DNA of 64,000 bases from an uncultured Methanomicrobiaceae archaeon (GCA_963826525.1 CAWGXH010000004.1:1472001-1536000), one strand, 5' to 3'; positions 1,815 to 58,826 are shown, counted from the stretch's first letter. Numbers and translations: made by a program. The notes: generated by a model from the sequence alone, not told the origin.

Positions 1815-4154
1815 TTAATTATTAGTTATGGTGAAACCATTCACGAGTGTTCCGGATTGTCCGTCACTGTTAGTCACGACAACATTCCAGTCTCCTGTGG
1901 GATTTCCATTTGGCAAGGAAATCTTGCAACCTATTGATGTAGAACCGGTAATGTATATGTTCGTTGCAATGATGTCCGACTCCCCTGATCGAGTTAATTT
2001 CACTGTTGCTCCACTCATGAACGTCAATTCCCCGTGATCGTTGGCCACACATTATTGTTTTTCTTCCCGCTGTTTGGAGAAATCCCCGTCACTGTCGTGG
2101 GCCGCTCCAACCTGGAGTGCATAATCCTCCGCCCCGCCCACATAGTAGACCCGGTCGCTGCCCGGATTGATGAGTTGCATCAGTCCACCGCTGTTGGGCC
2201 GAATGTTATGGAGGGTAATCTGGTGATTGTCGTTTACATAGTTGTACAGGGTCGATCCATCGTAGACTGAAGTACGTGTTCGCCATACCTGATGCGACAA
2301 CCATTGTGAGGGTCGAACTGAAGGAATCGCTGTTGCTGATGTATATGCCATCGATAGTTCCTCTCCCAACTTCTACGCCGTTAATGTGCATCATGACATC
2401 ATCGAACGAGAACGAATTAATATCCTGGCCGCCATGTTTGCATAGATGTTCCCTTTCCCGTCTGGTCCCGATTGTCAGGCGAACGATATTCCCTCCGTTT
2501 AACTGATGCTGATGGCCGGCTACGGTAACGTAACTGTCGGCTCCGGTCACCCGGAACTGGAGGTAACCTCCGGGCCGGAGCGCTCCTGACTTATACGTGT
2601 CAAGCGTAACCGACTTTACGCTCACCGGTGCCGTAACCGTCACATATCTGACCTTCGTCTCGGTGTCGCTCCCACCTGCATTCGTCGCTGTCAGGGTGAC
2701 CGTATAGGTTCCAGCAGATGCGTAGGTGTGGCTCGGGTTCTGCAATGCTGACGTCCCGACGTCACCGAAGTTCCAGAGCCACGAGGTCGGGGTGCCGGTG
2801 GAGGCATCGGTGAACTGGACGATAAGCGGTGCGGTTCCCGACGTCGGGGTGGCAGAGAAGTCCGTTGCCGGCGGTGGGACGGTCACGGTGATGTATCCCG
2901 CCTTCTCTTCGGTATCGCTGCCGCCTGCGTTGGTGGCGGTCAGGGATACCGTGTATGTCCCGGCTGCAGCGTAGGTGTGGCTCGGGTTCTGCAGGGTTGA
3001 CATCCCCCCGTCGCCGAACGTCCAGCTCCAGGACGTCGGTTCATTTGTCGAGGCATCGGTGAACAGGACTGCGAGCGGTGCGGTTCCGGTCGTCACGTTC
3101 GCGGAAAAAGCGGCGGTCGGGGGCTGTGTCGGCTCCGTAACGATAATATAGCCTGACCTTTGTCTCCGTGTCGCTGCCGCCGGCGTTCGCTGCCGTCAGG
3201 GTGACGGTGTACGTCCCGGCCGCAGCGTAGGTGTGCGAGGGGTTCTGCAATGTCGACGTCCCGCCGTCGCCGAACGTCCAGCCCAGGATGTTGGCGCATT
3301 CGTCGAGGTATCGGTGAACTGGACGATGAGCGATACGGCTCCCGAAAGCGGTGCCCAGTGAAATCCGCAACCGGTGCAGGGGCACGTTCACGGTGATGTA
3401 ATCGGTCTTCGTCTCGGTGTCGCTGCCGAATGCGTTGCTTGCCGTCAGGGAGACGGTGTAGGTGCCGGGGGCTGCGTAGGTATGAGTCGGATGCTGCAGG
3501 GTGGACGTACCGCTGTCACCGAATGTCCACGACCATTCTCTCACCCCTCCCGTCGAGGAGTCTGTGAACTGGACGGTGAGCGGGGCGGTGCCCGATGTCG
3601 GGCTTGCGGAGAATGCTGCGACAGGTGGAACTCCCGGAGTGGCTGGTGGAATCGTGCCGGTCCAGTTGTACGATGCGTAGAAGAGGGACTGTTCCCCACC
3701 CTGACCCGCGTAAATTATTGCAACTTCTGGCGGTGCATCTCCCTCACATAATCTCCCGGATCGTATACGAGGGTTTCGCCGATATGCCACGTATTCCAGC
3801 CGTGGTGCCGTCGATCGTCGAATATATTGCGTTATGTCTTCGACACTCTCCCCATCATCGACGTAGAACTGGAGGAGATTATATGGAATGGATTCCCCCC
3901 CGAGATGGTGGATATACACCTCTCCCCCTGAACCGTAGGAGACGTTAAAAGTGAGATACCGGAGGATCTGAATCTACCGGCTGCAGCACGACTCCGGCGA
4001 CGAAGATGGAGACGCCCACCGATATGATCGTGATGAGCAGCATCGTTCCCACGGCTTCGGAGATGCCGTCTTCACGAAGATTTCTCCGTATCGGTACTCT
4101 GGCATACCGTTTTGCTCGTGCCCTCGTGTGAGGGGTTCCGCTTCGGCTTCCCAC
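1815..4154 (-). CDS. Archaeal type IV pilin-like adhesin with 4 PKD domains and a C-terminal Ig-like (IPT/TIG-like) domain; several frameshifts; start approximate
   Basis: Class III signal REDG|ISEAVGTMLLI in ORF 3945..4154, then HLGGE motif. PKD repeats (WSWTFGDG..STLQNPSHTY..AGTYTVxLT) in ORFs 3041..3919 and 2206..3096. Tail GDWNVVVTNSDGQSGTLVNGFTI in 1815..2048. Confidence 0.8.
2630..3625 (-). repeat. Four tandem ~250-bp PKD-coding repeats
   Basis: Recurring DNA such as cgtaggtgtggctcgggttctgca and cgtctcggtgtcgct at ~250-bp spacing. Confidence 0.8.
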
Positions 4155-4182
4155 CCGGTCTTTGTCGCATTCACTCCGTCTC

Positions 4183-5270
4183 CTATGGATATATTTGCGT
4201 GTTCCCCCGCATCACCGTCTTCGCCTTCCCGACGAAGTAGACGCCGTTGCCGAGTGCTCCCGTCGAAGCGTACTGCATGATGAGCAGGGTGGGGTGTGCG
4301 GGCTCTATCTCGTAAAACTCAAATGTTTCACTGTTCTGGCCGTCAAGTATGGTCACGTTATTGATGATCAGGCGGGTGTGTTCGGTTCCGCCCTTCACGC
4401 TGAAGTTGAGCGTGGAGGCAAAGTCGCTGTAGTCCGTGATCCAGCTCTCAGTCAGGTCGCCGTTTCCGCTAATCTCCAGCCCCCAGACGCCGTTGTGTCT
4501 CACGTAGATACGGAGATCGTTCACGCCGTCGCCCTGTGCCTGGATGCTCCACCCCTTGTTCCCGAGCATGAAGAACATCAGATCCGGTGTCTTTCCCTGG
4601 ATGAATTCCATCCTGACCGCATCTCCGACGGCAAGGTTCGTTCTGGGATTGCTGCCGATCACCAGGTACGAGCCGGGTGCAGATATCGTGAACTGCAGGG
4701 TACCTTCGAATGTTCCCTGTGATCCACGTTCCGCACGAGTAAAGTAGACGGAGTCTCTCTCGAGTTGTCCCACGAATTGCTCGACGACGAACGTATCGAG
4801 TTCGTCCTGGTCGTCAAAGTGGATGTCGATGTCCCTTCGCTCCTGCCCGGGTGCATCTGGGCCTCCTGTTCGGATTTCGCCGCCCAGCGCCGCCGACTTC
4901 AGGAGCACCGATCCGCCTCCGCCGGTATACACGATGGAGACCCGGTGTGGAACAGCCGTCACCGGGTATGCAGCGTCTCCCCGACAACCCATGGCCATGC
5001 TCCGTCTCCACCGGTAATGGTTGCACCGCTGTTTGGTATGGTGGTGCCGTCGACGACGACCGAAAAGTCACCTTCCTGCAACGGGTCGCCGCCGTTATGC
5101 TTGATCAGGACGGTCGAGGAGGTGTTCCCGACGAGGACATTGATGTTCGGAATCTCGTCTGGCAGCGGCTGGGAGGTTATCGTGACCATGATGATGCCGA
5201 CACCGACGACCAGTACACCGAGCAGGAGGACGATGGCGATGATCTCGGAGACTGCGTTTTCATTCATCAT
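4183..5270 (-). CDS. Archaeal type IV pilin N-terminal domain protein (frameshift near 4990)
   Basis: MMNENA|VSEIIAIVLLLGVLVV class III signal and HNGGDPL motif. Continues in ORF 4183..4998. Confidence 0.8.
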
Positions 5271-5974
5271 TGCTTGTACGCCCCCTCTGCTGCTGGTGCG
5301 ATTCTTCCCTTCCTGTGTTATGAAGTATGGATGGCGCAATTCTCCGCATTGCCCGTGCATCAGAAATCTGCGTCCTGATTGTCAGGGCTTTTGAGATTCG
5401 AGCCTGTTGTGCCGTGTCGCGTCGATCGGGGTGACTTTGTCAACGGTGATGTCCACCTGCCGGTTTCACCGTGGGACAATGAAAATACGCCTTATGGCGA
5501 AGTTGTCGTATAAATGGATATATATTTCGCTGGTCGCCGCTGCTCCCTGTATTTATATTTTATATGGTTTGAAACTGTTAAACCCAAGTTTGCCATTTGG
5601 CTTCTGGAGGTGCTTCATGCCCCAAAAATGTCAAGATAGCCAGAATAGAATTTGACAGTTGAGTTAAATTTGTGAGTGAAATGCACGTTTTATTATCAGA
5701 ATACCAGATCTGTCTGAAATTCAAGGTCAAAATGAGGAGATTTCGGGAGATATTTTTCCAAATACTTGGAACTGTCAAATTGTGTTCCGTCACAATCTGA
5801 GAGATTTGAGTGGAGTGGCAAACTTAGGGTTAAACAGGCTGAACTCGCCCAAAGAGGTTGATTTTTCCAAGCTATGCGACACCCCCTCGGATGATGATCT
5901 ATGGAAGATTACGATTAAGAAGGGCGCTGCCATGAGTGATGGAGTGACAATGCAGCATCCCGGGTAAAAAGAGA

Positions 5975-45921: not shown

Positions 45922-46797
45922 ATGGAGCAAGACCAGCCACACAAGAGCCCGACGCTCTTCCGGGACCCGGGCGTCTTTGCCGCCGACTACCTTCCCGAAC
46001 CGGCACCCAGTCGGGCGGCCCCGATGGAGCAGCTCGCCTTTAACCTGCGGTCGGGCATGGTCGGCGCAACGCCGGACAATGTCATCTGCAGGGGCCCGCC
46101 GGGCACCGGGAAGACCGCATGCGTGCGGGCGCTCTTCGCCGATATCGAGGAGATGACCGATCGCTTCATCCCCGTCTACGTCGACTGCCGCGTCGACCGG
46201 ACGGAGCACGCAATCTTCTCGCGGATCTTCTCGAAGCTGACCGGCCGGCCGCCTGCGGAAGAGATGGCCGAGTGGGAGATCCGGGGAGCCGTAGCGGACC
46301 TGCTGCGGGAGCGTAAGGCCGTGCTCGTCGTCTGCCTCGACGAGATCGCCTGCCTCGGCAGCAAAAGCGAGATCAACCACCTGCTGTACGTGCTGCTGCG
46401 CATGTACGAGAGTTATCCCGGCACCAGGATCGGCGTGGTCGCTACCGTCAGCGACCTTTCCTACAATCTCCCCGCCAATCTGGATCCTTCCGTCTTCTCG
46501 GTCTTCCACCCGGTCGAGATCTTCTTCCAGCCGTTCGGCGTCGGCGAGATCCGCGGGATCCTCCGTGACCGGGTGCAGCAGGGGCTCGCTCCCCGCGCAG
46601 TCCCGGTCAAGGTGCTCGAGATGGTCGTGGAGCGGACGAGAGCATGCGGTGACATCCGTGTGGGTCTTGACCTCCTGAAGAGGGCGGCGATGTTCGCAGA
46701 GCAGGACGGTCGGAGGGTGGTAGGCCGGGAGGATGTTTCTATGGCGTATGAGCATTTCAATGATGGATCCACGGTTGCAGGGGATCCGTTTGTTTAG
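45922..46797 (+). CDS. cdc6: Cdc6/Orc1-family AAA+ paralog lacking the C-terminal winged helix
   Basis: LFRD..VF..DYLPE, GPPGTGKT, LDE and GDIRVGLDLL.RAA motifs; only 291 aa. Confidence 0.8.
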   Translation: MEQDQPHKSPTLFRDPGVFAADYLPEPAPSRAAPMEQLAFNLRSGMVGATPDNVICRGPPGTGKTACVRALFADIEEMTDRFIPVYVDCRVDRTEHAIFSRIFSKLTGRPPAEEMAEWEIRGAVADLLRERKAVLVVCLDEIACLGSKSEINHLLYVLLRMYESYPGTRIGVVATVSDLSYNLPANLDPSVFSVFHPVEIFFQPFGVGEIRGILRDRVQQGLAPRAVPVKVLEMVVERTRACGDIRVGLDLLKRAAMFAEQDGRRVVGREDVSMAYEHFNDGSTVAGDPFV

Positions 46798-46907
46798 ATG
46801 AACTGTACCCCATCTGTTTTCAGAACCCCTCTGCGCCCTTTTCTGAAAACAGTGCGCCGATCTGCTGCTACACCAGATCCGCCGCACAAATCAAGAGGAG
46901 ATACGAA

Positions 46908-48805
46908 TTACGCCGCAATGCCGTGCGTGACAGCTTCTCCGTTCTGCGGTGCGGCTTTTTGAAGCGTGAACCGGAACGCCGCCCCCTGCTCCGGCCGGCC
47001 GGTCACCCGGTCGTCCGCCCAGACCTGCCCGCCGTACCGCTCGGCGAGTATCTGCACGAGGAAGAGCCCGAGCCCTTCGCCGACGCCCCGTTTCTTCTGC
47101 TCGTACCGGTGGAAGATCGCATCCTTGTCCGTATCCGGCACGCCGGGGCCGGTATCCTCGACCGAAACCAGGACGGTTTCGCCCGCATCCTCGACCCGGA
47201 CGGTGATCTCGACGCCGGGACCACCATGCTTCACGGCGTTGCTGATGAGGTTGTTGAAGACCACGGAGAGAAGATCGTCTGCCCAAACCCGGTAGTGCAG
47301 CCCGTCGCAGAGAATGGTGCTGCACGGGAAATCTTTCGTCACCCCCCGGATCACCGCATCGAGATCCATCGGTTTGAGCTCGAACGACTCCCGGTGAATC
47401 CGGCGGATGGTAGAGACAGTCTTCAGGATCTCGATACTCTTCTGGACGCTACGCTGCAGCTTTTTCACATACCCGACTTCCTCCCCCTTCCCCTGCAGGC
47501 TGTCGATGAGCAGGTCGGCGTAGAGGTTCGAGACGTTCTCGGTGTTGCCGATATCGTGGGTGAGGATGTCCAGGTAGAGGTTCGCCTCCCGGTTCGCGGC
47601 CACCAGTTCCCGCTGAAGCGGGTGAGCTCTTCAGTGTGGCGCATAAGCGCTTCTTCCGCCTGCTTGCGTTCGGTGATGTCCCTGATGTTAACGGTGGTAA
47701 TCGGATTTCCACGGACAAAGCCATGCGCGAATGAAGTCTCAAGCCACACCTCCCCACCATCCCGGCGCCTGAAGAAGAACTCCTTTTGCTCCTGCGTCCC
47801 GGGATTCTCCGGCAGCCGGATGCCTGCCAGATCCTGAAGCGGCCTCCCCACCGCCTCGTCGCTGCTGTAGCCGAGGATACTCTCGGCGGCGGAGTTCCAG
47901 ATCAGCACGGTTCCCTCTGCATCAAGGCCGATGATCGCGTCGGGAGATGCCTCGATCAGAAGTCTGTATCCTTCGCCGGAGGGAGGGAAGATCCTGTCCA
48001 GCATCTGGTGAACGTCAGTCTGGCGGTTGCGGGAGAGGTACAGCAGCAGGATCAGGGCTATCAGGAAGTAGAGGGAGGCACCCCACTGCCCCGCTCTGCC
48101 TACCCAGGCCATGATATCCCCGCTGGATACAGTCACCAGGTACGCGAGCTGACCGAGGCTCAGGAATGCCAGCGCCAGACTGTACATATACAGGAACGAC
48201 GAGCGTGCCCGGACGTGCTGCACGAATATCAGCAGGGCGGAGGCCGCAAACAGGATCGCAGCGAATCCGATGACCACCTGCCGGATCGGGGTGCCGCCCT
48301 CGCCGGCGATGAAAAAGGCGGGGAGCCGCTGCGCCGTACTTGCGAGGACTACCAGCAGTACTGCCGCTATCCCGCCGCCATAGCCCGCTGCGAGAGCAAT
48401 TACCCGCTGCCGCATGTCAGCCCTCATCAGGCCGATAGATAAGAGGGCGGTCAGGGCGCCGATGAAGTGCAGGGAACCGGCGAGGAGGGCGCCGATATTC
48501 TGTATCTGCACGCCGGCATTCAGGCTGATCGGGGTTCCGAACAGGTTCGCCATGAGGATGGCCAGCCCCAGCACGAGGATGCCGGACCCCATCCAGACGA
48601 GCTGCAACCGGCCGGTCTTCACCACGGCCCATGCAACGAGCACGGCGAGAACGATGAACCCGATGTTCAGGAAGATGTTGAACCCTGCCTGAAAGGGAGC
48701 AATAAAATCGAGAGGGACGTTTGCAAAGACCTGCACGACGAAAACCAGTGCCAGCAGAAGAACGGGCGCGGCAGCAAGCAGGCGCCAGGTATGCTGCACG
48801 TTCAT
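46908..48805 (-). CDS. Multi-TM PAS sensor histidine kinase (frameshift near 47610)
   Basis: About 8 TM, a PAS domain, YLDILTHDIGN H-box, and NAVKH, DTGPG, GLGL boxes. Confidence 0.9.
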
Positions 48806-49100
48806 GGTCCGCCACTGCTGTCTGCTGCTGTCATGTGATTTGCCTGCTATGAATACTCTTTCTGTGAATGCATTATCAGCATTGGTTGCTCAGCCCCGGC
48901 GTTGCTTAACGGATATTAACTACGATTAATCTGATCAAGTATAACTTTTCCCATTCGGTTATTACGCACCGAGCGGTGGCAAAAGGAGTTTTGCACGGCT
49001 TACGAGAGGTTTTATGGCGTAATCTCACGTGTGAGTGCCCCCTCTGCCACAACAGCCGGCTACCGCTGTATTCTCTGTCTTCCTTCGCCCTCCGGAGCGT

Positions 49101-49395
49101 CCCACCTCCGCCCGCTCCCTCCGGTCGCTCCGCCCTCCTCCCAGGGGAGGAGGGCAGTCCGGTGCGATACCCCGTGTCCCGGGCCAGCCTCCACTGCCAG
49201 GGCGGGTAACGGTAGCGAGTGCCCGACCTCCAGCCGCGAGCATGCCCGGCGGAGCCGGTGATGCGAGCGGCGGGCCGGAGCAGCCGTCACGCTGCGAGGC
49301 CGCGCCGAGCGAGTGAGGGCGCCCGCGGTCCCGGACACCGCGAAGAACCAGGGCGACGTTCCGAAGCGAGCACCGCGAGCGAGGAATCTCGCCCG
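49101..49395 (-). repeat. Structured ~290-bp repeat, copy A (inverted relative to B and C)
   Basis: Its reverse complement aligns along its length with 51298..51569. Confidence 0.9.
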
Positions 49396-49415
49396 TCGGC
49401 GGGGCCCGGCAAATG

Positions 49416-49571
49416 TTACTCTTCCTCGACCGGATCGAGCAGGATGATCTTCACTCTTTTACCGACCCACGAGACCGGCACCATAACATGGCCGCTGTTC
49501 CCGGTTTTGGTAACGGTCTTCTCCCGCACTTCGTATCCGCTGATAGTGAGTTCCACTTTATCCATACTCAT
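49416..49571 (-). CDS. DUF2080-family small protein (AbrB-like, mobile-element associated); missed by the ORF track
   Basis: Manual translation: MSMDKVELTISGYEVREKTVTKTGNSGHVMVPVSWVGKRVKIILLDPVEEE* (GNSG..VP..W.GK.V pattern). Confidence 0.8.
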   Translation of the reverse strand: MSMDKVELTISGYEVREKTVTKTGNSGHVMVPVSWVGKRVKIILLDPVEEE

Positions 49572-49607
49572 TATGTAATCTTTGTATCATATAAAATCTA
49601 ACTTAAA

Positions 49608-49645
49608 TTATACATTGTATATACAATGTATAAAAGTTTAAATAC
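49608..49645. promoter_or_regulatory. Perfect 26-bp palindrome abutting a BRE/TATA-like box in a divergent promoter
   Basis: ttatacattgtatatacaatgtataa (49608-49633) followed by aagtttaaata. Confidence 0.75.
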
Positions 49646-49702
49646 TCAGCCGTCCTATACTATAATAGTGAGCGGAGAGGCGCTCACTGGAGGAATAGAC
49701 AG

Positions 49703-49966
49703 ATGACATTCAAGAAAATCGGAAGGCTGGCCCTGCACGACGGCCGGCTCCGGGTCGAGATCGACACGGTCGGATCGTTCACCTTCGACGATCACTGCCT
49801 GGTCGGCGAGGACGGCCGGCGGCACGGCTACGCGATGCCGAGCACGACGGGAAAAGCGATGAACCTGCACCTGACGGACGGAGCGCTCTGCACCGTGATC
49901 AAGTCGCAACTCCTGCAGGTCGTCAGCGGGAATATCGGAAAAGCAGCAGTGTTCGAGGTGGCGTAA
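49703..49966 (+). CDS. Hypothetical protein
   Basis: 87-aa ORF with ggagg RBS; first gene of the ardC operon. Confidence 0.75.
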   Translation: MTFKKIGRLALHDGRLRVEIDTVGSFTFDDHCLVGEDGRRHGYAMPSTTGKAMNLHLTDGALCTVIKSQLLQVVSGNIGKAAVFEVA

Positions 49967-50286
49967 ATGTCCTGGACAGACGCCGACAGCCACCCCGAAC
50001 CCCTGCACAGAGAAGATCGGCGGGCAGCCCCTTAACCCTTCCGGGCGCCCCCTCTCGTTCACCGACGCGATCCCGTACCGCGACCTCCGCCGGATGGCCG
50101 ACCTCGATGAGCGGGCGATGGAGATCGGCGCCGAGAGAAACCCGCTCTCGCAGCGGGTCGCCGCCCACCTCTTCAAGCAGGCCGAGGAGATCCTGCAGCA
50201 GGTACCGCGACCTGGTCGCGGAGCACGGCCTCGAGGCATGCGCACAGTGGGCGGCCGAGGCCGACGCACGGAGGGGACTTCTGATG
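49967..50286 (+). CDS. Hypothetical protein (frameshifted; boundaries approximate)
   Basis: ATG directly after the upstream stop. Readable as ...FTDAIPYRDLRRMADLDERAMEIG...QAEEILQQ/YRDLVAEHG across indels. Confidence 0.5.
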
Positions 50287-50433
50287 CCGGCGACCTGCGA
50301 CGAGTGCGGCGCCGAGGTGCCGGACGACTGCTGCCGGATGAGCCGCGAGCGGGAAGAGTTCTGGGGTGCGCCGTGTTCCTACACGGTGATCACCGGCTAC
50401 ACCTGCCCGGAGTGCGGGCATGAGGAGGTATGA
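50284..50433 (+). CDS. Small zinc-finger protein (CxxC...CPxCG)
   Basis: MPATCDECG...YTCPECGHEEV*. Confidence 0.7.
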   Translation: MPATCDECGAEVPDDCCRMSREREEFWGAPCSYTVITGYTCPECGHEEV

Positions 50434-50436
50434 CGG

Positions 50437-51406
50437 ATGGTCTCCGTCTACGAGGTGGTCCGGGACCGGATCATCTCCTCCCTTTCAGCCGGCACGGTGC
50501 CCTGGCGGCAGACCTGGCAGAGCATGTCCCCGATGAACCTCGCCACCGGCCGGCCCTACCGGGGGATCAACCGGATCCTGCTCGCGGGGCATCCCTGGTG
50601 GGGCACCTACAACCAGATCAAGCAGCCTCGGCGGCTACGTCCGGAAGGGCGAGAAGGCATCCGGGATCGTGGTCTTCTGGTCGTTCGACGAGACCCGGCG
50701 GACGGTGAGCGAGAACGGCGACGAGGTCGCGGTGATCATGCAGCGGGAGCGGCCGCTGGTGCGCTACTACAAGGTCTTCAATCTCTCGCAGTGCGACGGG
50801 ATCGCCGTGGAGGACGTCGGCGAGGTGCAGCCGATCGCCTCCTGCGAGGACGTGATCGCCCGGAACGCTCCCCGGGTGATCCCGGGCGAGCCGGCCTACC
50901 TCCCGAAGAGCGACCGGATCGCGATGCCGGCGCCGGACCGGTTCACCTCGGCGGAGGCCTACTACGCGGCCTTCTTCCACGAGCTCGCCCACTGGACCGG
51001 GCACGCCTCCCGGCTCGACCGGCCGGGGATCACGGAGCCGATCCGGTTCGGCAGCGAGGAGTACAGCCGCGAGGAGCTGACGGCGGAGATGGGCGCCGCG
51101 TTCCTCTGCGCGATGACCGGCACCGATCTGCCGGTGCTCGAGAACCAGGCGGCCTACATCGCCGGGTGGCTGAAGCATATCCGCGACGGTTCGGCGGTCG
51201 ACGTGATCCGGGCCGCGGCGGATGCCCAGCGAGCGGCGGACTTCCTCACCGGGAACGGTGGGGAGGAGGCCTCTTCTTTTTCGAGGGCGGGAGCGGCCGG
51301 GCGAGATTCTTTGCTCCCGGTGGTCGCTGCAGAACATCGCCCTGGTTCTTCCCGGTGTACGGGATCGCCGGCGCCCTCACTCGCTCGGCGCGGCCTCGCT
51401 TCGTGA
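50437..51406 (+). CDS. ardC: ArdC-like antirestriction protein (ssDNA-binding N-domain + zincin-like MPTase); frameshift near 50625; natural stop probably near 51270
   Basis: PWRQTW, N..TGRPYRGIN, WGTYNQ, VFN.SQ, FHELAHWTGH.SRLDR, YSREELTAEMG, AAYI.GW and AQRAADF motifs. Confidence 0.9.
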
Positions 51407-51569
51407 CGGCTGCTTCCGCCCGCCGCTCGCATCGCCGGCTCCGCCGGGCATGCTCGCGGCTGTTACCTGTCCTGTCGATAGAGGCTGCCGGGGATACGGG
51501 CTATCGCACCGGACTGCCCTCCTCCCGGGGAGGAGGGCGGAGCGACCGGAGGGAGCGGGCGGAGGTGGG
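51298..51569 (+). repeat. Structured repeat, copy B
   Basis: Shares gccctcactcgctcggcgcggcctcgc, ccggctccgccgggcatgctcgcggctg and the gccctcctccc...ggaggagggc hairpin with copy A. Confidence 0.9.
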
Positions 51570-51634
51570 GCAAACGCACCATCCAAAAATGGTGCAGCGG
51601 CCGTAAGCAGGAAGGTATTCCATTCCGGACCGTC

Positions 51635-54062
51635 TTACGCGACTTTCTGCAGCGTGAACCGGAAGGCCGCCCCTTCCTCCGGCCGGCCCGGGACCCGGTC
51701 ATCGACCCAGGTGCGCCCGCCATAGCGCTTGACCAGCGTCCGGACGATGTAGAGTCCAAGCCCCTCCCCTTTTCCTCTGGCCACGCCACGCTCGAACCGG
51801 GTGAAGAGCTTCTCTTTCATCTCGTCCGGCACACCGGGACCGGTGTCCTCGACCGAGACCCGCACTTCGCCGTTCTGCTCCTCGAAACCGATTACGATCT
51901 CCACGTCAGGTCCGCTGAATTTGACGGCGTTGCCGATGAGGTTCGTGAAGATCACCGGCAGGAGACCGTCTGCGAGCACGTCGACCCTTCGGCCGTCGAA
52001 CTGGATCGATGCACCGGGGAAGTTCTCAATTTCCTCCTTGATGATCGCATCGAGATTCATCGGTATCAGGCGATCGGATTCCTGCTGCAGCCGCCGGATA
52101 GTGGCAACGTTTCGGAGGATCTCGCTGCTTCGCTGGATGGCGTCCCGCAGTTTCCGGGCGTAAAGCCACTGGTCGCCGGCGAGCAGTCGACCAGGAGGTC
52201 GGCGTACATGCTCGGAGACGTTGTTCGCGTTCCGGACATCGTGGGTTATGATGTCCAGGTACATGTTCGTCTCATCGCGTGCTGCCTTGACTTCATGGTT
52301 GAGCCGGATGAGGTCGTCGGTGCGGCGCACAAGCACTTCTTCAGCCCGCTTACGCTTGGTGATATCTTGAATCGTGCCCATAACGCCAGGCTCGCTTCCG
52401 AACACTATCGGTGCACCACCCATTGATCCCCAGACTGCGGTGCCATCTTTTTTCCGGAGTTTTGCCTGAAAATCTCGGACGACTCCATCCTTTTTCATGA
52501 TATTTAGCCAGGCGTTTCTATCTTCGGCATTCCACCAAATGTCAGATGCCTTCGTACCCACCATCTCACCTGGCCCATAACCTACGATACGCTCAAAGGC
52601 TGGATTGGTGTACCGAAGCACGCCATCCATCGAACTTATGCCTGCTCCGATTGGAGTAACTTCGCTCAGTGCTTTAAAGCGCTGTTCACTCTCTTGTAAA
52701 GCTTCTTCGGCCCGCTTGCGCTCGGTGATATCGATATAAGCTCCTACCGCACCATATGGCCTCCCGTTCTCGTCCAGTAACGGCACGGCATTACCGAGCA
52801 GCCGATGCATCGTCCCGTCATCAAAGACCAGATCGAGCTCGGCCAGCTCCGCCGTCCGGCCGGTGGCGGCGGCCTTCTGCACGGGCAGTTCCGCCGGCGG
52901 GACCTCGATGCCGTCCTGCATCACCCGGAAATGCGTCGGCCGCTCTCCTTCGGGACCCGACTTTGAGAGGTTGCTTCCCTGCGGCAGGCGGAGAAGATCG
53001 TACGTCCTGCGGCTGCCGAGCATGGTCAGGCATTCGGGATCGACCGCGATGAAGACCGCTGCGGGTACCGCTTCCATGATCGCCTGCAGCTCCGCTGCCC
53101 GCCTCCGTTCTCGGGCCTCGCTCTCCCGCAACTCCGCTTCTGCACGCTTGCGCTCGGTGATGTTGCGTGCATTCACGACGAAACCCCGAACGGCAGGCTC
53201 TTCCAGGAGATTGACACCGGTCACATCAAAGTACTGCCAGCCTCCTGAGCTGTCCCGGATCCGGGCTTCATAGTAACCTTCTCTTTCGGATGGGCGGCAA
53301 GAGTGCGCAGGCCGTCCATCGCCAGCGGCAGATCGTCGGGATGAATCAGTTTAAAGCCGCTTCTCCCGATAAGATCTTCGGCCGCATACCCCCCGACCTG
53401 TTTCGCCGAAGGAGTTTTATACCGAATATGTCCTTCTGCATCGAGAACGACGACGATATCCGAGGCATTCTCGGTGAGCAGCCTGAATCGCTCCTCACTC
53501 TTCCGTAATGCCTCTTCCACCCGTTTGCGTTCGGTGATCTCCTCGACAACGATATTGATCGCGACGACCCGCCCCCGGTCGTCCTTGAGCGGCCACCAGT
53601 TTTCCTTCCAGCAGCGGGCTACGCCGGGCTGTGCCGGCGTCTCTCCCCGAATCTCGAGATCGAGAACAGGTTCACCCGTTTCAACCACCCTTCGGACGAG
53701 GTCTTCAGCCACGTCCGCAAGATCCGGGACAAGTTCACGGACTCTCTTCCCGATATGTTCCTCGACGGAAAGCCCGTTCAGTTCGGCAAGTTGCCGGTTG
53801 ACACGGAGGTACCGGGTATCCGTGTCGAGCAGGCAGAGCCCGATCGGTGCCGACGCATAGATGACATCGAGCTCCAAGTGATCTTTCGCATAGTCCTCGT
53901 TTCCCCAAGAAGCTCTTTCAAAGCGTTTCAATTGTTCATTCTCACGTCGAAGGGTATCAATCTCCGCCTGAAGTCTTTGACTTCGGCGGAGAGATCCCGT
54001 GCCGCTTCGTCCCGCCTGGTGGGATCGGTTTTTTCCTGTTGGGTTCCTGGGGGTGCTGGCAT
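51635..54062 (-). CDS. Multi-PAS histidine kinase (frameshifts; start approximate)
   Basis: Four PAS domains with DITERKR linkers, YLDIITHDVRN, and NAVKF/DTGPG/GLGL boxes. Confidence 0.85.
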
Positions 54063-54259
54063 CAGAATCGGGACTCCTATTTAAAGCAGTATCAGTGAAT
54101 TTCCCATGCAGGGTAATAACAATAGCACTCTACGTGCATGCGTAGGGACACCCCGAGTAAGGTTATAGCAACTGCTTGTCAGCAAACAAAGGTCTGTTTT
54201 TTAAAATTATCGTAGTCAGGACGGCAAATGCAAGAATCTGGATGTTAACCAGCGAACGA

Positions 54260-54419
54260 CCGGGCGAGACTCCTCACTCGCGCTGCTCGCTTCGGAACAT
54301 CGCCCTGGTTTTTCCCCGGTGTCCGGTACCGCGGACGCCCTCACTCGCTCGGCGAGGCCTCGCAGCGTGACGGCTGCTCCTGCCCGCCGCTCGCATCACC
54401 GGCTCCGGCCCGGGCATGC
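54260..54419 (+). repeat. Structured repeat, partial copy C
   Basis: Matches the 5' ~160 bp of copy B. Confidence 0.85.
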
Positions 54420-54725
54420 ATCAAGGCTGCTGTTCGGTAAAGCAATCCTTAAATACCCGTAATCCCGGCCGAATCCGCCGAAAAAACCACCCTCACAGAA
54501 GCCCACAGACGGCCGATCTCGAGGCGAGGCAGGGTATCCATCCTCCGAAAATTACTGCCCCTCATATGGCCATTATACCTCGATGAATCTGCCGTATTTC
54601 TGGAATCAGGCCGATATGCTTTGGTTTCTATATCGGCTGGAATCCGCCTCTCTGGAATCAGCGTTAAAATCTGAAAAGGGCGGCAATTTACCCTTCTTTC
54701 AGGACGGGGTGAGGGGCGTTCCCTC

Positions 54726-55947
54726 TCACGCCAGATCGTTGCGCCGGAGGAACTCCCGGATCGCCCGGGACTCGACCCATCCCTGGTCGAGCTGCCTGAC
54801 GATATCGTTGATTCGCCTCACCTGCGTCTGGATACTCGCGGCGGTCTCCTCGTCGGCCATGAGATCCGCCCTGGCCATGATCACCTGCAGCGGGTGGCGG
54901 ACGTGGTCGCCGAGGATCGCGAACTGCTCCATGTTCTGCTCTATCTGGGCATACGCCTGCCGCCGGATCGCTTCGTGATGTTTCCGATCGGTGATGTCGT
55001 ACATGATGCCGTGGCTCGATACGGCCCTGGCCGGCGGCATCGCAGGCGAACCTGCGGACCGAGTGCATCCAGCGCACTTCGCCGTTCGGCAGGCAGACGC
55101 GGTAGTCCATCACGAAATCCTTCCGGTCACGGATACTCCGCTCGAGCTCCGCGAGGACGTGTTCGCGGTCTTCGGGATGCAGCCGGTCAACCAGAGCGGC
55201 GTGGCCTGGTTCGACGCTCCCGGGTGCATATCCCAGCAGCTCGAACTGCCGGGGGTTCCACTCCGACCTGTCGTTCTCGAGATCCCAGAACGATACCCCG
55301 GCCTGTATGGCGTCCAGTGCCAGTGCCAGCTTGTCACGGCTTCTGCGCAGTTCACGTTCAGCCATTTTGCGCTCGGTAATATCTGAGAAGACGGCGACAC
55401 CGTACCGGGGAGCGCCTCCCGAGCAGGTGACGGGTGCGGTGCTGACCTCCATGTACCTGGTGGTGCCGTCTGCCCGGAGGAATGCGATCTCTTCATCCGT
55501 GACCCGCTCCCCGGTAGCGATCGACCGGGAGAGAGGCCACTCGTCAGGCCGGTACGGCCGTCCGTCAGGGTGAAACCCGATATCTCCGAATCGCTCCTGC
55601 GCTTCGTCGGCGGGGAGGTAATGACGCCGCAGGATGCGGTTTACCTGTTTATTGCCGAGGACAAACTCCCCGGACGGCGCTTCGACGATAAGCACACCGG
55701 CCGGCATCTGGTCGATCACCGCCCGGAGCATGCCACGCTCGGTCTCGACCTCATCCACGAGACGCTCGCACTCCCGCTCGGCTTTGTGGGCACGCTCTTT
55801 AAGTGCATCTGCACATTCTTCGAGTGCGTTGATCCGGCCTACAAGAGTATCGATGAGGCGGCGATCGGCAGGATCAGCCCGTTCCCGGAGTTTCTGCAGG
55901 GCTGCATGTGCCTGTTCATCTGCGTGCGTATCGGCGGACCCGTTCAT
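54726..55947 (-). CDS. PAS-PAS protein ending in a HisKA-like helical hairpin, without an ATPase domain (frameshift near 55030)
   Basis: PAS with PDGRPY..EWPL.R and a PAS_3-like domain; tail QFAILGDHVRHPLQVI...LDQGW.ES. Confidence 0.8.
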
Positions 55948-56023
55948 GCATATACCTCGTGTATCCCTTGTTCTTCACCGTCGGCCCTCATGGCCTTTCT
56001 GCTTCGGGTACAGTGCCCTTCGC

Positions 56024-58403
56024 TCAGGCATGATCCGCCTTCCGAAGCGTGAATTTGAACGCCGCTCCTTCATCAGGAGAGCCCGGCACCCGGTCGTCGA
56101 CCCAGACCCTCCCGCCGTAGCGTTCGACCAGTGTTCGGACGATGAAAAGCCCGAGCCCCTCTCCGCTTCCCTCGGGCCATGCCCCGTTCGAACCGGTGGA
56201 AGAGTTTCGCCTTCACCTCGTCCGGCACGCCCGGGCCGGTGTCTTCGACCGAGACCAGCACCTCGCCGTCCCGCTCCTCGACCCGGACGGTGATTTCGAC
56301 GTCGGGACCGCCGAACTTCACGGCGTTGCCGATGAGGTTCGTGAAGACGGTCGGGAGGAGGCCGTCTGCCAGCACCTCGACCGGAGGATCGATCGTACCG
56401 GATCGATGCATCGGGGAAGGCTTCGATCTCACTTCGGATGACGGCATCGAGGTTCACCGGCACCAGGATGACCGGATTCCTGCTGTGCCCGCCGGATGGT
56501 GGCGACGTTCCGGAGGATCTCACTGCTCCGGTCGATGCTGTCGTGCAGTTTCTCTGCATAGGTCTTCAGGTCTCCTTCCGCCAGGTCGGCCAGGAGATCG
56601 GCGTACATGCTCGAGACGTTGTTCGCGTTCCGGACATCGTGCGTCATGATGTCGACGTACATGTTCGCCTCGTCGCGTGCCGCCTCAACCTCCTGACTCT
56701 TCCTGATAAGGTCGTCGGTGCGGCGCCGGAGCGCTTCTTCCGCCTCTTTGCGCCTGGAAATGTCACGCATCACCAGCATTGAGGCAGGTTTGCCTTTGTA
56801 CCTGATCTGCACTTGGGAGTTCTCTACATCTGCTCTCTGCCCGTCCAGGCGGATGATCTCGACCTCCACGGGCGAAACGCTCTCCTTTGCCAGGCTCTCT
56901 CGAGACCGTGCATCGATGAGTGCGTGGTACTCGGGGTGGACGAGGTCGAAGATGGTTTTGCCGGCGAAGTCCTCCGGCGACGATGCGCGGAAGAGACGAA
57001 CCGCTGCCGGGTTTGCGTAGATGTAGTCCTCGTCCTGCTGGAGCAGAATTGCCTCCGGGGAGAGTTCGACCAGAATGCGGTAGCGCTCTTCGCTCTCTTT
57101 TAAGGCTATCTTCCGCCCTCTTCCGGTCCGTATCATCGTACATATAGGCACGTGTTCCAACGAGTTCTCCGGTATCGTCAAAGATGCCTGTCAGGTTCGC
57201 AACGATATTGACCAGCCGGCCGTCCCGGCGGCGCAGGGTCATTGTGTGATGGTAGAGTGTTCTCTCCTGCCGGAGCCGGCTTAGGAGATCGGCTCTCTCC
57301 TGGGGGTCCGGGTAGAGCAACGCGATGTTGCTCTCGAGAGCCTCGTTCAGGGATGTAAACCCGAAGATTGCGAGAAATGCAGGGTTACAGGCCTGAATCC
57401 GCCCGTCGACAGAGACCTGGCTGTCGCCGGTGAGGTCGTCCCAGAAGAACCGGGCGTACTTCTCCTCGCTCTCCCGCAGGTCCTCTTCCGCCCGCTTGCG
57501 TTCGGTGATATCCTGGGTTATCCCGAAACCTCCGAGCAGCCCGCCGGCATCGTCGAACTCCAGGTAGGCCTTCTCCCGCACCCATTTTACACGCCCGTCC
57601 ACCAGAATGCGGTGCTCGATGTCGTAGGGCTCGCCAGAGAGTCCCGCCTTCCATCGGGTGTCCACGTACTCCCGGTCATCGGGGTGGACTAAACTCAGGA
57701 ACGTCTCGTAGGTTAGCGGTGTCCCTCGTGGCACTCCGAATATGCGGTGATTCTCGTCCGACCATGTCAGGACGTTCCGGTCGATATCCAGCCGCCAGCT
57801 TCCAATCTGGCCGACGGTCTGTGCCCGGTCAAGATCTTTCCGGCTCTCCCGCAGTGCCTCTTCCGCCTGCTTCCGCTTGGTGATATCGGTGGCGACGACC
57901 CGGAGCCGGGGCGTATCGCCGCCTGCGACGCTCTTCCCCTCGAGCAGCACCAAGGCGGGTTCGCCCTCCGCCCGCTTCAGCCGGACGTCGCAGGCCTCTT
58001 TCATATCCGAGGTCATCGCCCGGGCAAGGAACTCGTTGAACTGTTTGAGACTCTCCCGTTCGAGGAAGAACTCGAATCGCGCTCCGATCAGCCGCCCGCG
58101 TACCCTGCCGAGCAGCGACGCCCCGGCGAAGTTCGTCTCCAGGATCTCGCCGTTCAGATCCAGCGTGAAATACCCGATCGGCGCGAACTCGTAGAGGTCG
58201 CGGTACTTCTCTTCGGAGGCCTGCAGATCGCGCTGCAGATCCTGCAGCGCCTCGTTCTGGAGCTCGAGCTCGACCTGGTGCACCTCGAGCTCGTGATAGA
58301 GTCTCCGCACGTCCTGCTCGGGGAGGTCTCCGGCGTGTCCTTTCTTCCGCACCTCGTCCTCGGCGCGTCGCCGGAGGTCTGGGTCTGACGATCTCTCCGG
58401 CAT
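56024..58403 (-). CDS. Multi-PAS histidine kinase of the type found after CheB/CheR fusions (several frameshifts)
   Basis: LRRRAE...HELEVHQVELELQNEAL leader, 4 PAS domains, YVDIMTHDVRN and NAVKF/DTGPG boxes. Confidence 0.85.
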
Positions 58404-58413
58404 GGTGATCAGT

Positions 58414-58826
58414 TCACTCGGGTGCGGTTTCCTCATGTGTTCCACCGGCCTCTGCTTCCGGACGGCCGGTGACGTCCTTGATGGCGAGCGGGATCAGGTT
58501 GGGCCGGTTGCGAAGGGGATCCGCCGGCATATGCGTGAAGAACTGTTCGAGCGCCTGCAGCCCTCCCGACGATGCCCCGATCCCGACGATGCCCCGATCC
58601 CGACGATGCCCCGATCCCGACGATGCCCCGATCCCGACGATGCCCCGATCCCGACGATGCCCCGATCCCGACGATGCCCCGATCCCGACGATGCCCCGAT
58701 CCCGACGATGCCCCGATCCCGACGATGCCCCGATCCCGACGATGCCCCGATCCCGACGATGCCGATGACTTCGCTCGATCGACCTCCGGATTCGTGTGTG
58801 TTCCTGGTCTCTGTATTCTGCGTCAT
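58414..58826 (-). pseudogene. cheB: CheB/CheR-PAS fusion remnant (N-terminal CheB motif joined to a PAS C-terminal tail)
   Basis: IVGIGASSGGLQALEQFFTHMPAD followed directly by LIPLAIKDVTGR. Confidence 0.7.
58565..58763. repeat. Perfect 17-bp tandem repeat (cccgacgatgccccgat), 11 full copies + 12 bp
   Basis: Counted directly; units start every 17 bp from 58565 to 58752. Confidence 0.97.

Follow-up and report, generated by a model that had tools for sequence, protein, structure and literature searches.

The window analyzed here is a stretch of 64,000 nucleotides from an uncultured Methanomicrobiaceae archaeon (genome G000), and its positions 49101 to 51569 hold a discrete unit of 2469 bp comprising a DUF2080/AbrB-like gene, three small open reading frames and an ArdC-like gene (Table 1). 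The ends of this unit are two mutually inverted copies of a long repeat, A (49101-49400) and B (51293-51569), which enclose positions 49401-51292; a third, partial copy (C) lies downstream. The genes form two divergent transcription units, each reading into an arm: the DUF2080/AbrB-like gene on one side, and h87, the small reading frames and the ArdC-like gene on the other. Between them lies a perfect palindrome that is likely an operator, and its self-inverted match is also present in a second carrier genome, G052. The orthologue of the DUF2080 gene in G052 is identical in length and scores 64 bits on NCBIfam NF033496, while the predicted structure of h87 gave no clear fold match. The ArdC-like gene belongs to an anti-restriction type, its product being an ssDNA-binding metallopeptidase by similarity. 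The frameshift in this gene occurs only in the G000 assembly, and the reading frames for orf104 and the zinc ribbon are intact in G052 and in two further loci (L070 and L051). The open frame of the ArdC-like gene extends 113 nt into arm B and stops at a conserved TGA, with no codon periodicity in the tail that lies inside the arm.

Table 1. Features of the cassette and its repeat arms, in window coordinates
Feature	Position	Strand	Remarks
Arm A, outer (terminal) module	49101..49230	+	Starts CCCACCTCCGCCCGCTCCC; contains 10-bp hairpin 49132-49155
Arm A, 165-nt core	49231..49400	+	H3 three-tier palindrome 49233-49271; imperfect hairpin H1 49351-49394
DUF2080/AbrB-like small gene, 51 aa	49416..49571	-	Pfam PF09853, E 6e-7; 3' end towards arm A
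Perfect 24-nt palindrome TATACATTGTATATACAATGTATA	49609..49632	.	AT-rich divergent promoter region
h87, 87-aa all-beta protein, family not known	49703..49966	+	Conserved; predicted structure pLDDT 92
orf104 and ~50-aa zinc-ribbon ORF	49967..50433	+	Frameshifted in G000 assembly
ArdC-like gene (ArdcN + MPTase-PolyVal)	50437..51406	+	Domain matches; frameshift near 50640-50669
Arm B, core	51293..51462	-	H1 51298-51341; H3 51422-51460
Arm B, outer module	51463..51569	-	Hairpin 51516-51538; ends ...GGAGGTGGG; 21-nt deletion relative to A
Copy C, solo, core-only	54254..54437	-	Orientation as B; L003: neither ArdC nor DUF2080 adjoining

The three diverged copies reported in the first-pass annotation were borne out by direct reading and a repeat search, and their similarity is far above chance level. 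Arms A and B pair over the core (49231-49400 with 51293-51462; 170 nt, 89% complementary), at the outer end (49101-49146 with 51524-51569; 46 nt, 98%) and in a third inverted match between the two (49145-49184 with 51487-51526; 40 nt, 93%). Copy C matches A in inverted orientation in two pieces (49250-49347 with 54310-54407, 98 nt, 93%; 49342-49395 with 54261-54314, 54 nt, 91%) and B in direct orientation (98 nt, 87%). Global alignment of A with the reverse complement of B yields 249 matches, 28 mismatches and 23 gap columns in indel runs of 1, 1 and 21, that is, identity at 249 of 277 aligned positions. The repeat is built of two modules, an outer one of about 130 nt, patches of which are conserved in another family, and a core of 165 nt. 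Copy C carries the core only, and its outer side abuts an unrelated and abundant dispersed repeat. The motifs described earlier could likewise be read directly: the gccctcctcc/ggaggagggc hairpin of both outer modules, the ccggc-tcc-gccgg mini-hairpin, the gggcga...tcgccc stem, and the swap between GCGAGC-acc-GCGAGC in A (49366-49380) and GCGACC-acc-GGGAGC in B (reverse of 51313-51327).

The repeat family occupies about 10 places in the G000 genome, and the core was found in 18 of the 55 genomes of the taxonomic family and, through a 22-base pattern search, in 43 metagenome contig stretches. Among 65 distinct copies (loci L001-L103), 21 lie at the 3' end of an ArdC-like gene, 10 at that of a DUF2080 gene and 34 are solo; many are truncated. 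In all 31 gene-adjacent copies (21 ArdC, 10 DUF2080) the 3' end of the gene points towards the inner end of the core, and an ArdC-like gene was always linked to the arms in the loci examined. Complete two-armed cassettes are present in three metagenome contigs (L067, L070, L074) and one-armed or partial ones in three more (L064, L081, L094); G031, L070 and L074 share one common block with the same end points. In Methanoculleus-type genomes the cassette is located in variable regions, and a number of these resemble defense islands.

The outer limits of the unit are sharp. Homology between the window and G052 spans 49101-51569 (93.5% over 2500 columns) and ends exactly there, with no further match between the remainder of positions 47500-53500 and 20 kb of G052; in G051 and G035 homology ends at the same outer nucleotide as in G000. 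All six termini of the elements in G000, G052 and G051 begin with CCCACCTCCGCCC, whereas the six flanks are mutually unrelated. Both flanks differ between G000, where the cassette sits between paralogues of a PAS histidine kinase, and G052, where its neighbors encode NERD-UvrD, GIY-YIG, HNH, trypsin-HEAT and Cdc6 proteins. G000, G051 and G035 all have a short Orc1/Cdc6 gene with the DUF2080-side end on the same side of it, and these three therefore do not represent independent insertions; clearly different contexts are given only by G052 and the metagenome contigs.

Cores on the ArdC side are 86-94% identical across genera, as compared with 82-88% for the ArdC gene itself, and are under purifying selection. 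Within the family, the arms group according to side and not according to element. Strict symmetry of the ends is not always kept: in one genus (g4) the arms on the DUF2080 and ArdC sides are only 61-62% alike, and just one side has the outer module. Cassettes from two other families of the order also carry long flanking inverted repeats of 260-420 nt and mostly different sequence, as in G091 (2537-2959 and 5021-5409, in pieces of 83-96%) and G062 (1951-2212 and 3808-4213). These arms were missed by the core profile, and the sequence in common is limited to short patches. The inverted-repeat architecture recurs in at least three families with differing arm sequence.

The reading that we favor, with a probability of roughly 0.55, is a discrete mobile gene cassette of about 2.5 kb that is not autonomous, with A and B as its two long inverted-repeat ends and with C as a solo end that decay or recombination left behind. 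Mobile insertion cassettes (MICs) and MITE-like elements carry passenger genes between IS-type inverted ends and are moved in trans. The unit described here resembles them in being discrete, in lacking a transposase of its own, in being bounded by inverted copies, in presenting identical end nucleotides in unrelated flanks (G000 and G052) and in the dispersal of solo or partial ends. It departs from them in the length of its ends (165-420 nt, against 15-40 nt), in the absence of target duplication and in the lack of an autonomous partner with matching ends in the genomes searched. Inspection by eye of the six ends of the three elements, and of the ends in G091 and G062, showed no target-site duplication. 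The cassette also resembles the pdif modules of Acinetobacter plasmids, in which genes flanked by inverted XerC/D sites are moved by host recombinases: these too are small modules with inverted bounding sites, no recombinase of their own and no target duplication, but their sites span 28 bp in a XerC-spacer-XerD layout, whereas the arms here are long and modular.

Searches with Pfam, PHROGs and NCBIfam returned no recombinase or transposase domain in the cassette, nor any cognate enzyme in cis; no copy of the terminal module adjoins a transposase, and we know of no transposase for the repeat. The only DUF2080 gene in G000, a genome 87.6% complete, is that of the cassette. Nearby recombinases amount to the truncated N-terminal part of a tyrosine integrase that abuts one terminal module (contig C15); in G021, an integrase gene is located at a distance of 3.5 kb from a core copy. 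Relatives yielded no empty site: searches with the flanks gave only paralogues or larger island differences. If the cassette is mobile, a recombinase supplied in trans may move it or exchange it as a block. Such an enzyme would recognize the two ends, each inverted relative to the other. The candidate recognition sites are the palindromic modules conserved in each arm, one being the terminal hairpin of 10 bp and the other the three-tier palindrome of 39 nt around GCGAGCATGCCC; they could be read as duplex dyads or, more likely, as extruded hairpins, since loop lengths vary.

The arms do contain local hairpin-forming palindromes, but the earlier proposal of a folded single-stranded nucleic acid finds support at this local scale only. 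With an energy model that gives sheared G.A pairs no bonus, the 39-nt H3 palindrome (z -3.2/-2.8 in A, -1.8/-1.9 in B) and the terminal hairpin (z -3.6/-3.9) form more stable folds than dinucleotide shuffles do, H1 ranges from z -0.1 to -2.1, and whole arms (z -0.5 to -1.4) are not unusual in their overall foldability. The two proposed local helices are 94.5% paired over 34 copies, and 8 of their 28 pairs change on both sides, against 3.2 ± 1.0 in shuffles and 1-6 in slid controls, but these changes belong to just two or three haplotypes in linkage. Length variation is seen in the apical loop of the mini-hairpin, whose stem is preserved, and the half-site spacer ranges from 12 to 16 nt, with a stem of at least 4 bp retained in 18 of 24 variants. 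Over the whole core, RNAalifold gave a covariation term of -0.03, with 2 of 32 predicted pairs changing on both sides. Wobble pairs show no strand bias: G.T and A.C departures at stem positions number 77 and 70 over 87 copies, and the folding strand therefore cannot be named.

Among other explanations, a shared 3'-UTR RNA appears unlikely, even if several observations would suit it. Both divergent mRNAs would end with the same RNA of some 170-300 nt in the same arm orientation, which could act in stability, termination or protein binding, or be the source of a 3'-derived small RNA. The uniform orientation of the gene-adjacent copies, the ArdC frame that enters the arm and closes at its conserved stop codon, the conservation of the ArdC-side core as strong as that of coding sequence and the partial compensatory change in the local hairpins all agree with such an RNA. 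So does the clustering of arms by side, which is also compatible with two 3' flanks under separate selection and to that extent argues against a mobile cassette. Against an RNA, however, stand the outer ends that are sharp at the DNA level and the 34 copies without an upstream gene; the whole-core covariation term is -0.03, the sense strand has no excess of G.U over A.C, and a search of positions 48000-55500 on both strands against Rfam 15, a check the first-pass annotation had also suggested, gave no match at E≤1.

A signal acting in single-stranded DNA, the other option raised by the first-pass annotation, seems improbable to us. The purine-rich strand of the arm would fold into hairpins with GNA triloops and tandem G.A pairs. 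In an ssDNA intermediate of transfer or replication, these would provide a site for priming, a promoter or a fold-back resembling a telomere, and the ssDNA-binding N-terminal domain of ArdC may bind them. In bacteria, single-strand initiation sites (ssi) and ssDNA promoters (Frpo) are found in the leading regions of conjugative plasmids, near ardC, ardA, psiB and ssb. The arms share with them the linkage to an ArdC-type gene and hairpins that are rich in GC and, on one strand, contain GNA loops and G.A mismatches. Where the sense strand has conserved T.C/C.T positions, its complement shows tandem G.A in a CGAG context. The core has 7 GCGAG motifs on one strand and 1 on the other; shuffles average 2.2 and reach at least 7 in 3 of 2000 cases. 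The hairpins are real, two of them beat shuffles, and their stems persist as loop length varies. On the other hand, distant arms lack this strand bias (3 vs 2 and 0 vs 2), and the arms lie downstream of genes and in both orientations, so that there is no single active strand. By contrast, ssi and Frpo are found upstream of genes, on the strand that a conjugative element with a relaxase transfers. No relaxase, Rep or transfer gene was found among the Pfam hits of window positions 40-58 kb and of the 20-kb neighborhoods in G052 and G035, in this case in an archaeon, and the whole arm is no more stable than shuffles. The repeat forms the inverted-repeat end of a gene cassette, and its reading as a stand-alone ssDNA signal or structured RNA is not supported.

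Other systems with hairpin-bearing ends offer partial parallels. The terminal inverted repeats of linear replicons, such as Streptomyces telomeres and parvoviral ITRs, are packed with palindromes. They resemble the arms in their length of a few hundred bases and in their several hairpin palindromes with loops closed by purine-purine pairs, but the unit here is integrated, spans only 2.5 kb, has no polymerase, terminal protein or Rep gene, and its whole arms fold no better than shuffles. IS200/IS605 ends, PATEs and REP/RAYT elements also combine subterminal hairpins, non-autonomous derivatives and a lack of target duplication. This assignment was rejected: the Y1 (HUH) transposase (PF01797), whose absence also disfavors an ssDNA signal, was detected in 0 of 5 carrier genomes, with the control positive in 6 of 14 genomes, each end here repeats the other in inverse orientation, and the six junctions share no conserved target tetranucleotide. 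It is conceivable, if doubtful, that the arms are the hairpin-folding ends of an undescribed class of archaeal mobile cassettes that would move or replicate by way of an ssDNA or cruciform intermediate, their folds recognized by the ArdC-like protein or by the small AbrB-like and zinc-ribbon proteins. Such a class would explain why the inverted-repeat architecture persists around ArdC cassettes across the families of the order despite the turnover of arm sequence.

It is very improbable that the arms are initiator-binding repeats around an AT-rich cassette center, as part of an integrated replicon's Orc1/Cdc6-dependent replication origin. The short Orc1/Cdc6 paralogue (291 aa, without the winged-helix part) does adjoin the DUF2080-side end in G051 and G035 and lies 2.3 kb from it in G000, further Cdc6 genes occur within 10 kb in G052 and G035, and the cassette includes an AT-rich stretch of 120 bp. 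Origin recognition boxes, nonetheless, surround an unwinding element, whereas the arms here are separated by 1.9 kb and by four or five genes; the cassettes in G052, L070 and L074 have no adjacent match to the short Cdc6 gene, and none of three loci with more distant homologues of it has the repeat alongside. An inverted duplication that survives as a relic without function, or a coding fragment that has decayed, would fit the frameshifted genes of G000 and the many truncated copies, but is largely refuted by the recurrence of the architecture across families with unlike arms and by the identity of orthologous arms across genera. The first-pass annotation had itself considered a decayed coding or IS fragment: the latter comes close to the mobile cassette that we favor, but the repeat is non-coding, with variability of 0.088, 0.104 and 0.096 at codon positions 1, 2 and 3 over 25 copies and one-base indels separating copies. 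The repeat of a diversity-generating retroelement was rejected as well, with no reverse transcriptase among neighborhood Pfam hits and with the 28 mismatches between the arms falling once at an A of copy A and 10 times at an A of copy B.

ArdC-type proteins are early anti-restriction factors of bacterial conjugative plasmids, and a gene of this type lies between two of the three repeat copies (A, B and C) that the first-pass annotation had noticed and that direct sequence reading and a repeat search confirm. Copies A and B are inverted with respect to each other (pieces of 170, 46 and 40 nt, respectively 89, 98 and 93% complementary in the repeat search), and global alignment of A with the reverse complement of B yields 249 matches, 28 mismatches and 23 gap columns, the latter in indel runs of 1, 1 and 21. 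The partial copy C is inverted relative to the inner 165-180 nt of A (98 nt at 93%, 54 nt at 91%) and in direct orientation to B (98 nt at 87%). The fine structure described for these copies (the 10-bp hairpin, the ccggc-tcc-gccgg mini-hairpin, the gggcga/tcgccc stem and the GCGAGC/GCGACC...GGGAGC swap) is likewise borne out by the sequence, at the positions given. The repeat family occupies about ten places in this genome (G000). The copies represent the long inverted-repeat ends of an ArdC-type cassette that is conserved and lacks a recombinase, together with one solitary end. We consider it somewhat probable (roughly 55%) that they act as ends at the DNA level, their palindromic modules being recognised by a recombinase acting in trans or by the small DNA-binding proteins of the cassette itself.

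Coordinates of the cassette, its surroundings and related loci (window positions unless a genome or contig is named)
Feature	Position	Strand	Remarks
Orc1/Cdc6 paralogue	45922-46797		291 aa; ends right after the lid domain, without the winged-helix part
PAS/HATPase histidine-kinase paralogues	46891-48805, 51635-54060, 54688-58445		tandem array; 61-87% alike in parts
Cassette	49101-51569		2469 bp
Arm A	49101-49400		outer module of ~130 nt plus core
Core of arm A	49231-49395		165 nt
DUF2080/AbrB-like gene	49416-49571	minus	51 aa
Perfect palindrome	49609-49632		24 nt; in AT-rich divergent promoter region between DUF2080-like and h87 genes; kept in related genome G052
h87		plus	conserved 87-aa ORF
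orf104		plus	~104-aa ORF
Zinc-ribbon ORF		plus	~50 aa
ArdC-like gene	after the small plus-strand ORFs		ArdcN + MPTase-PolyVal; G052 orthologue matches PHROG 'anti-restriction protein', E 3e-64
Arm B	51293-51569		
Copy C	54254-54437		
Abundant dispersed repeat	54425-54735		~300 nt; immediately outside copy C
Arms in G091 (other family)	2537-2959 / 5021-5409		pieces of 33-165 nt at 83-96%
Arms in G062 (other family)	1951-2212 / 3808-4213		pieces of 47-97 nt at 77-84%
Inverted repeat in G061 (other family)			only 33 nt at 82%
Cassette locus L039	G035:C11:355000-374999		amid defence-type genes
Cassette locus L040	G052:C5:535000-554999		amid defence-type genes
Terminal-module locus L007	G000 C15:3773-4318		between a kinase 3' flank (paralogous to the arm B flank) and a tyrosine integrase fragment

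The boundaries of the cassette are sharply defined by comparison with related genomes. When window positions 47500-53500 are aligned with 20 kb of G052, the match is confined to the cassette (93.5% over 2500 columns), apart from cross-matches between arms, and in G051 and G035 the element stops at this same outer nucleotide wherever a side is present. The terminus is of the CCCACCTCCGCCC type: all six termini of the G000, G052 and G051 elements start with CCCACCTCCGCCCGCTCCC, their six flanks are unrelated and no target duplication accompanies them. Searches with the flanks from G000, G051 and G091 for an empty site turned up nothing beyond kinase or Cdc6 paralogues, or larger differences in the islands, and the contigs of four DNA runs break at the repeats and give chimeric arm alignments, no joined or empty form being readable. 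In G000 the cassette is set between PAS histidine-kinase paralogues. The short Orc1/Cdc6 gene of the window, separated from the cassette by one kinase gene, adjoins the DUF2080-side end in G051 and G035, where its short form is conserved, and G052 and G035 also have full-length paralogues of 375 aa in the vicinity. The presence of this gene on one side in G000, G051 and G035 implies that these three loci are related there and do not stem from independent insertions.

The arms enclose 1.9 kb with five features. No recombinase or transposase domain was found in the cassette with Pfam, PHROGs or NCBIfam, and ArdC is the sole cassette protein with a match in PHROGs, as an anti-restriction protein. 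The 24-nt palindrome is a candidate operator for the AbrB-like protein. Neither h87 nor orf104 has Atlas neighbours; the predicted structure of h87 (pLDDT 92) finds weak best matches in the PDB (Foldseek E 0.15 to a LytTR domain, VIA Z 6.0). Both orf104 and ArdC are frameshifted in the G000 assembly, and their orthologues are free of these frameshifts; since the flanking kinase genes are likewise split, assembly error is as likely as decay. Kinase paralogues of the array have dozens of relatives across G000. Several members of the array are split by apparent frameshifts, as are ArdC and orf104, which suggests assembly indel errors or widespread decay. The DUF2080 gene was also considered as a transposase marker and set aside: the cassette protein is of a weakly scoring AbrB-like kind, with one relative near a PemK toxin gene, and thus provides no evidence for a transposon origin. 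Strong DUF2080 matches elsewhere in the order adjoin IS66, IS4 or rve-type transposases; at two loci of other genera (L117 and L119) high-scoring DUF2080 genes sit directly next to IS66-family transposase genes, with five identical copies in G087. Such proximity fits the family name 'transposase-associated', unlike the weaker AbrB-like member of the cassette.

Matches to the 165-nt core occur in 18 of the 55 genomes of the taxonomic family, in three of its six genera, and a 22-base pattern search recovers the core in 43 metagenome contig stretches and in no viral contig. Known plasmid and phage collections match only a short stretch of the ArdC-like gene (the conserved peptidase motif), leaving the arms unmatched, and the exact terminal 23-mer retrieves from public genomes a single named record, Methanoculleus frigidifontis (order Methanomicrobiales), with both inverted ends. 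Complete two-armed cassettes are found in three metagenome contigs (L067, L070, L074), and one-armed or partial ones in three others (L064, L081, L094); G031, L070 and L074 carry one common block with identical end points. The parts of the literature consulted on DUF2080, archaeal ArdC and Methanoculleus mobile elements hold no account of such a cassette.

When 151 genomes of the order were searched with a DUF2080 profile, cassettes with the same gene order came to light in other families, again flanked by long inverted repeats. The core profile does not detect their arms (G091, G062, G061), which have in common with those studied here the patches CACCYCCGCCCG..CCTCCTCCC..GGGGCAGTC..TGCGAT and GCGAGCAT(G/C)CCC and nothing more; hence, the arrangement as inverted repeats is more durable than the sequence itself. 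The family presents a different picture: ArdC-side cores from different genera are 86-94% alike, and DUF2080-side cores of four elements 87-92%. The two arms within a single element agree to 83-89% in four cases and to 61-62% in two, and G051 has a derived variant common to both arms. By these identities, the arms mostly form two lineages that evolve under purifying selection and occasionally exchange sequence.

An unlikely alternative to DNA-level ends is that the arms encode a shared 3'-UTR RNA. Both transcription units run into an arm, and among 65 distinct core copies reaching the inner end, 21 lie at the 3' end of ArdC, 10 at that of the DUF2080 gene and 34 are solo, without either gene beside them; copy C, whose outer side meets an unrelated abundant repeat, is one of the solo copies. 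The structured RNA entertained in the first-pass annotation gained nothing from an Rfam scan of 48000-55500, which gave no match, or from RNAalifold on 20 cores (covariation term -0.03). A structure combining the closing-stem hairpin (H1) with a 39-nt three-tier palindrome (H3, GCCGC-GA-GCAT-GC-CCGGC-GGA-GCCGG-TG-ATGC-GA-GCGGC) pairs 94.5% of cells on 34 cores, as against 33-50% when slid, with 8 pairs changed on both sides versus 3.2+-1.0 in shuffles (0 of 500 reach 8) and 1-6 when slid. This count is weaker than it appears, because the structure derives from one of the sequences counted, because the strongest signals come from six fully linked columns in two haplotypes, including non-complementary column pairs, and because neither strand is favoured. 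A third haplotype adds T-A to A-T and, twice, C-G to T-A, few events in total. Stem departures number 77 for G.T and 70 for A.C, so that neither strand is preferred.

A single-stranded DNA signal, the other proposal made from the sequence alone, seems more doubtful still. Whole arms folded as DNA do no better than dinucleotide shuffles (z -1.33, -0.47, -0.89, -1.41). H3 reaches z -3.2/-2.8 in A and -1.8/-1.9 in B, and the terminal hairpin -3.6/-3.9; H1 is present as described, with z of -0.1 to -2.1. The GCAT/ATGC half-sites of H3 are spaced by 12-16 nt, and a stem of at least 4 bp is kept in 18 of 24 variants (74 of 81 occurrences, overlapping loci included), a combination that speaks for a folded hairpin more than for a site bound by a dimer as duplex. 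The core is enriched in GCGAG, with a strand bias (7 versus 1; shuffles reach 7 in 3 of 2000) that is absent from distant arms. No relaxase or Rep gene was found in the neighbourhoods examined.

Further readings were also tested. The repeat is not a diversity-generating retroelement, neither an adenine-specific mismatch pattern nor a reverse transcriptase having been found; IS200/IS605-type mobilisation is not supported, a Y1 transposase being present in none of five carriers; and a decayed coding sequence is largely refuted. The reading frame of ArdC continues for 113 nt within arm B, to a TGA conserved in four elements, and the variability of this tail (0.088, 0.104 and 0.096 at codon positions 1-3 in 25 copies) has no codon periodicity; together with the one-base indels by which copies differ, this identifies the arms as non-coding.

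Concerning an enzyme for the proposed DNA-level ends, Cas1 is present in all five carriers and is thus uninformative on a casposase. A tRNA scan of 38000-64000 found no tRNA gene. The integrase fragment on contig C15 comprises the N-terminal ~158 residues and breaks off exactly at the terminal module, full-length forms being found on C9 and in G021, where the distance between an integrase of this family and a core copy is 3.5 kb. Nothing else hints at an enzyme, and these hints are weak.

The ArdC-like gene occurs in methanogenic archaea within a small, conserved, recombinase-less cassette with unusually long inverted-repeat ends, which in some genomes has defence genes around it. Should the ends be recombination sites, the cassette would constitute a compact vehicle moving anti-defence genes between archaeal islands, and this would help to find more of its kind. 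Should the hairpins function as folded DNA, they would provide an archaeal case of structure-specific DNA recognition tied to a single-stranded DNA-binding protein. Annotators can take the ~165-nt core as a marker of these cassettes and should avoid labelling the repeat an RNA gene.

Around the cassettes of L039 and L040 are found type I restriction subunits, a CARF-like HFX_2341 regulator, NERD-UvrD, GIY-YIG, HNH, trypsin-HEAT with Trypco1 and DUF499; the G052 surroundings comprise the NERD-UvrD helicase, GIY-YIG, HNH, a trypsin-HEAT pair, Cdc6 and DUF499. The dispersed repeat outside copy C has 49 blastn matches in G000 on both strands (47 are 100 nt or longer and 25 are 250 nt or longer), and its junction is common to arm copies C, E (C3:226 kb) and I (C4:1007 kb). 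The part of this repeat covered by the Rfam scan gave no match. A MITE is one possible identity for it, a conserved intergenic element another.
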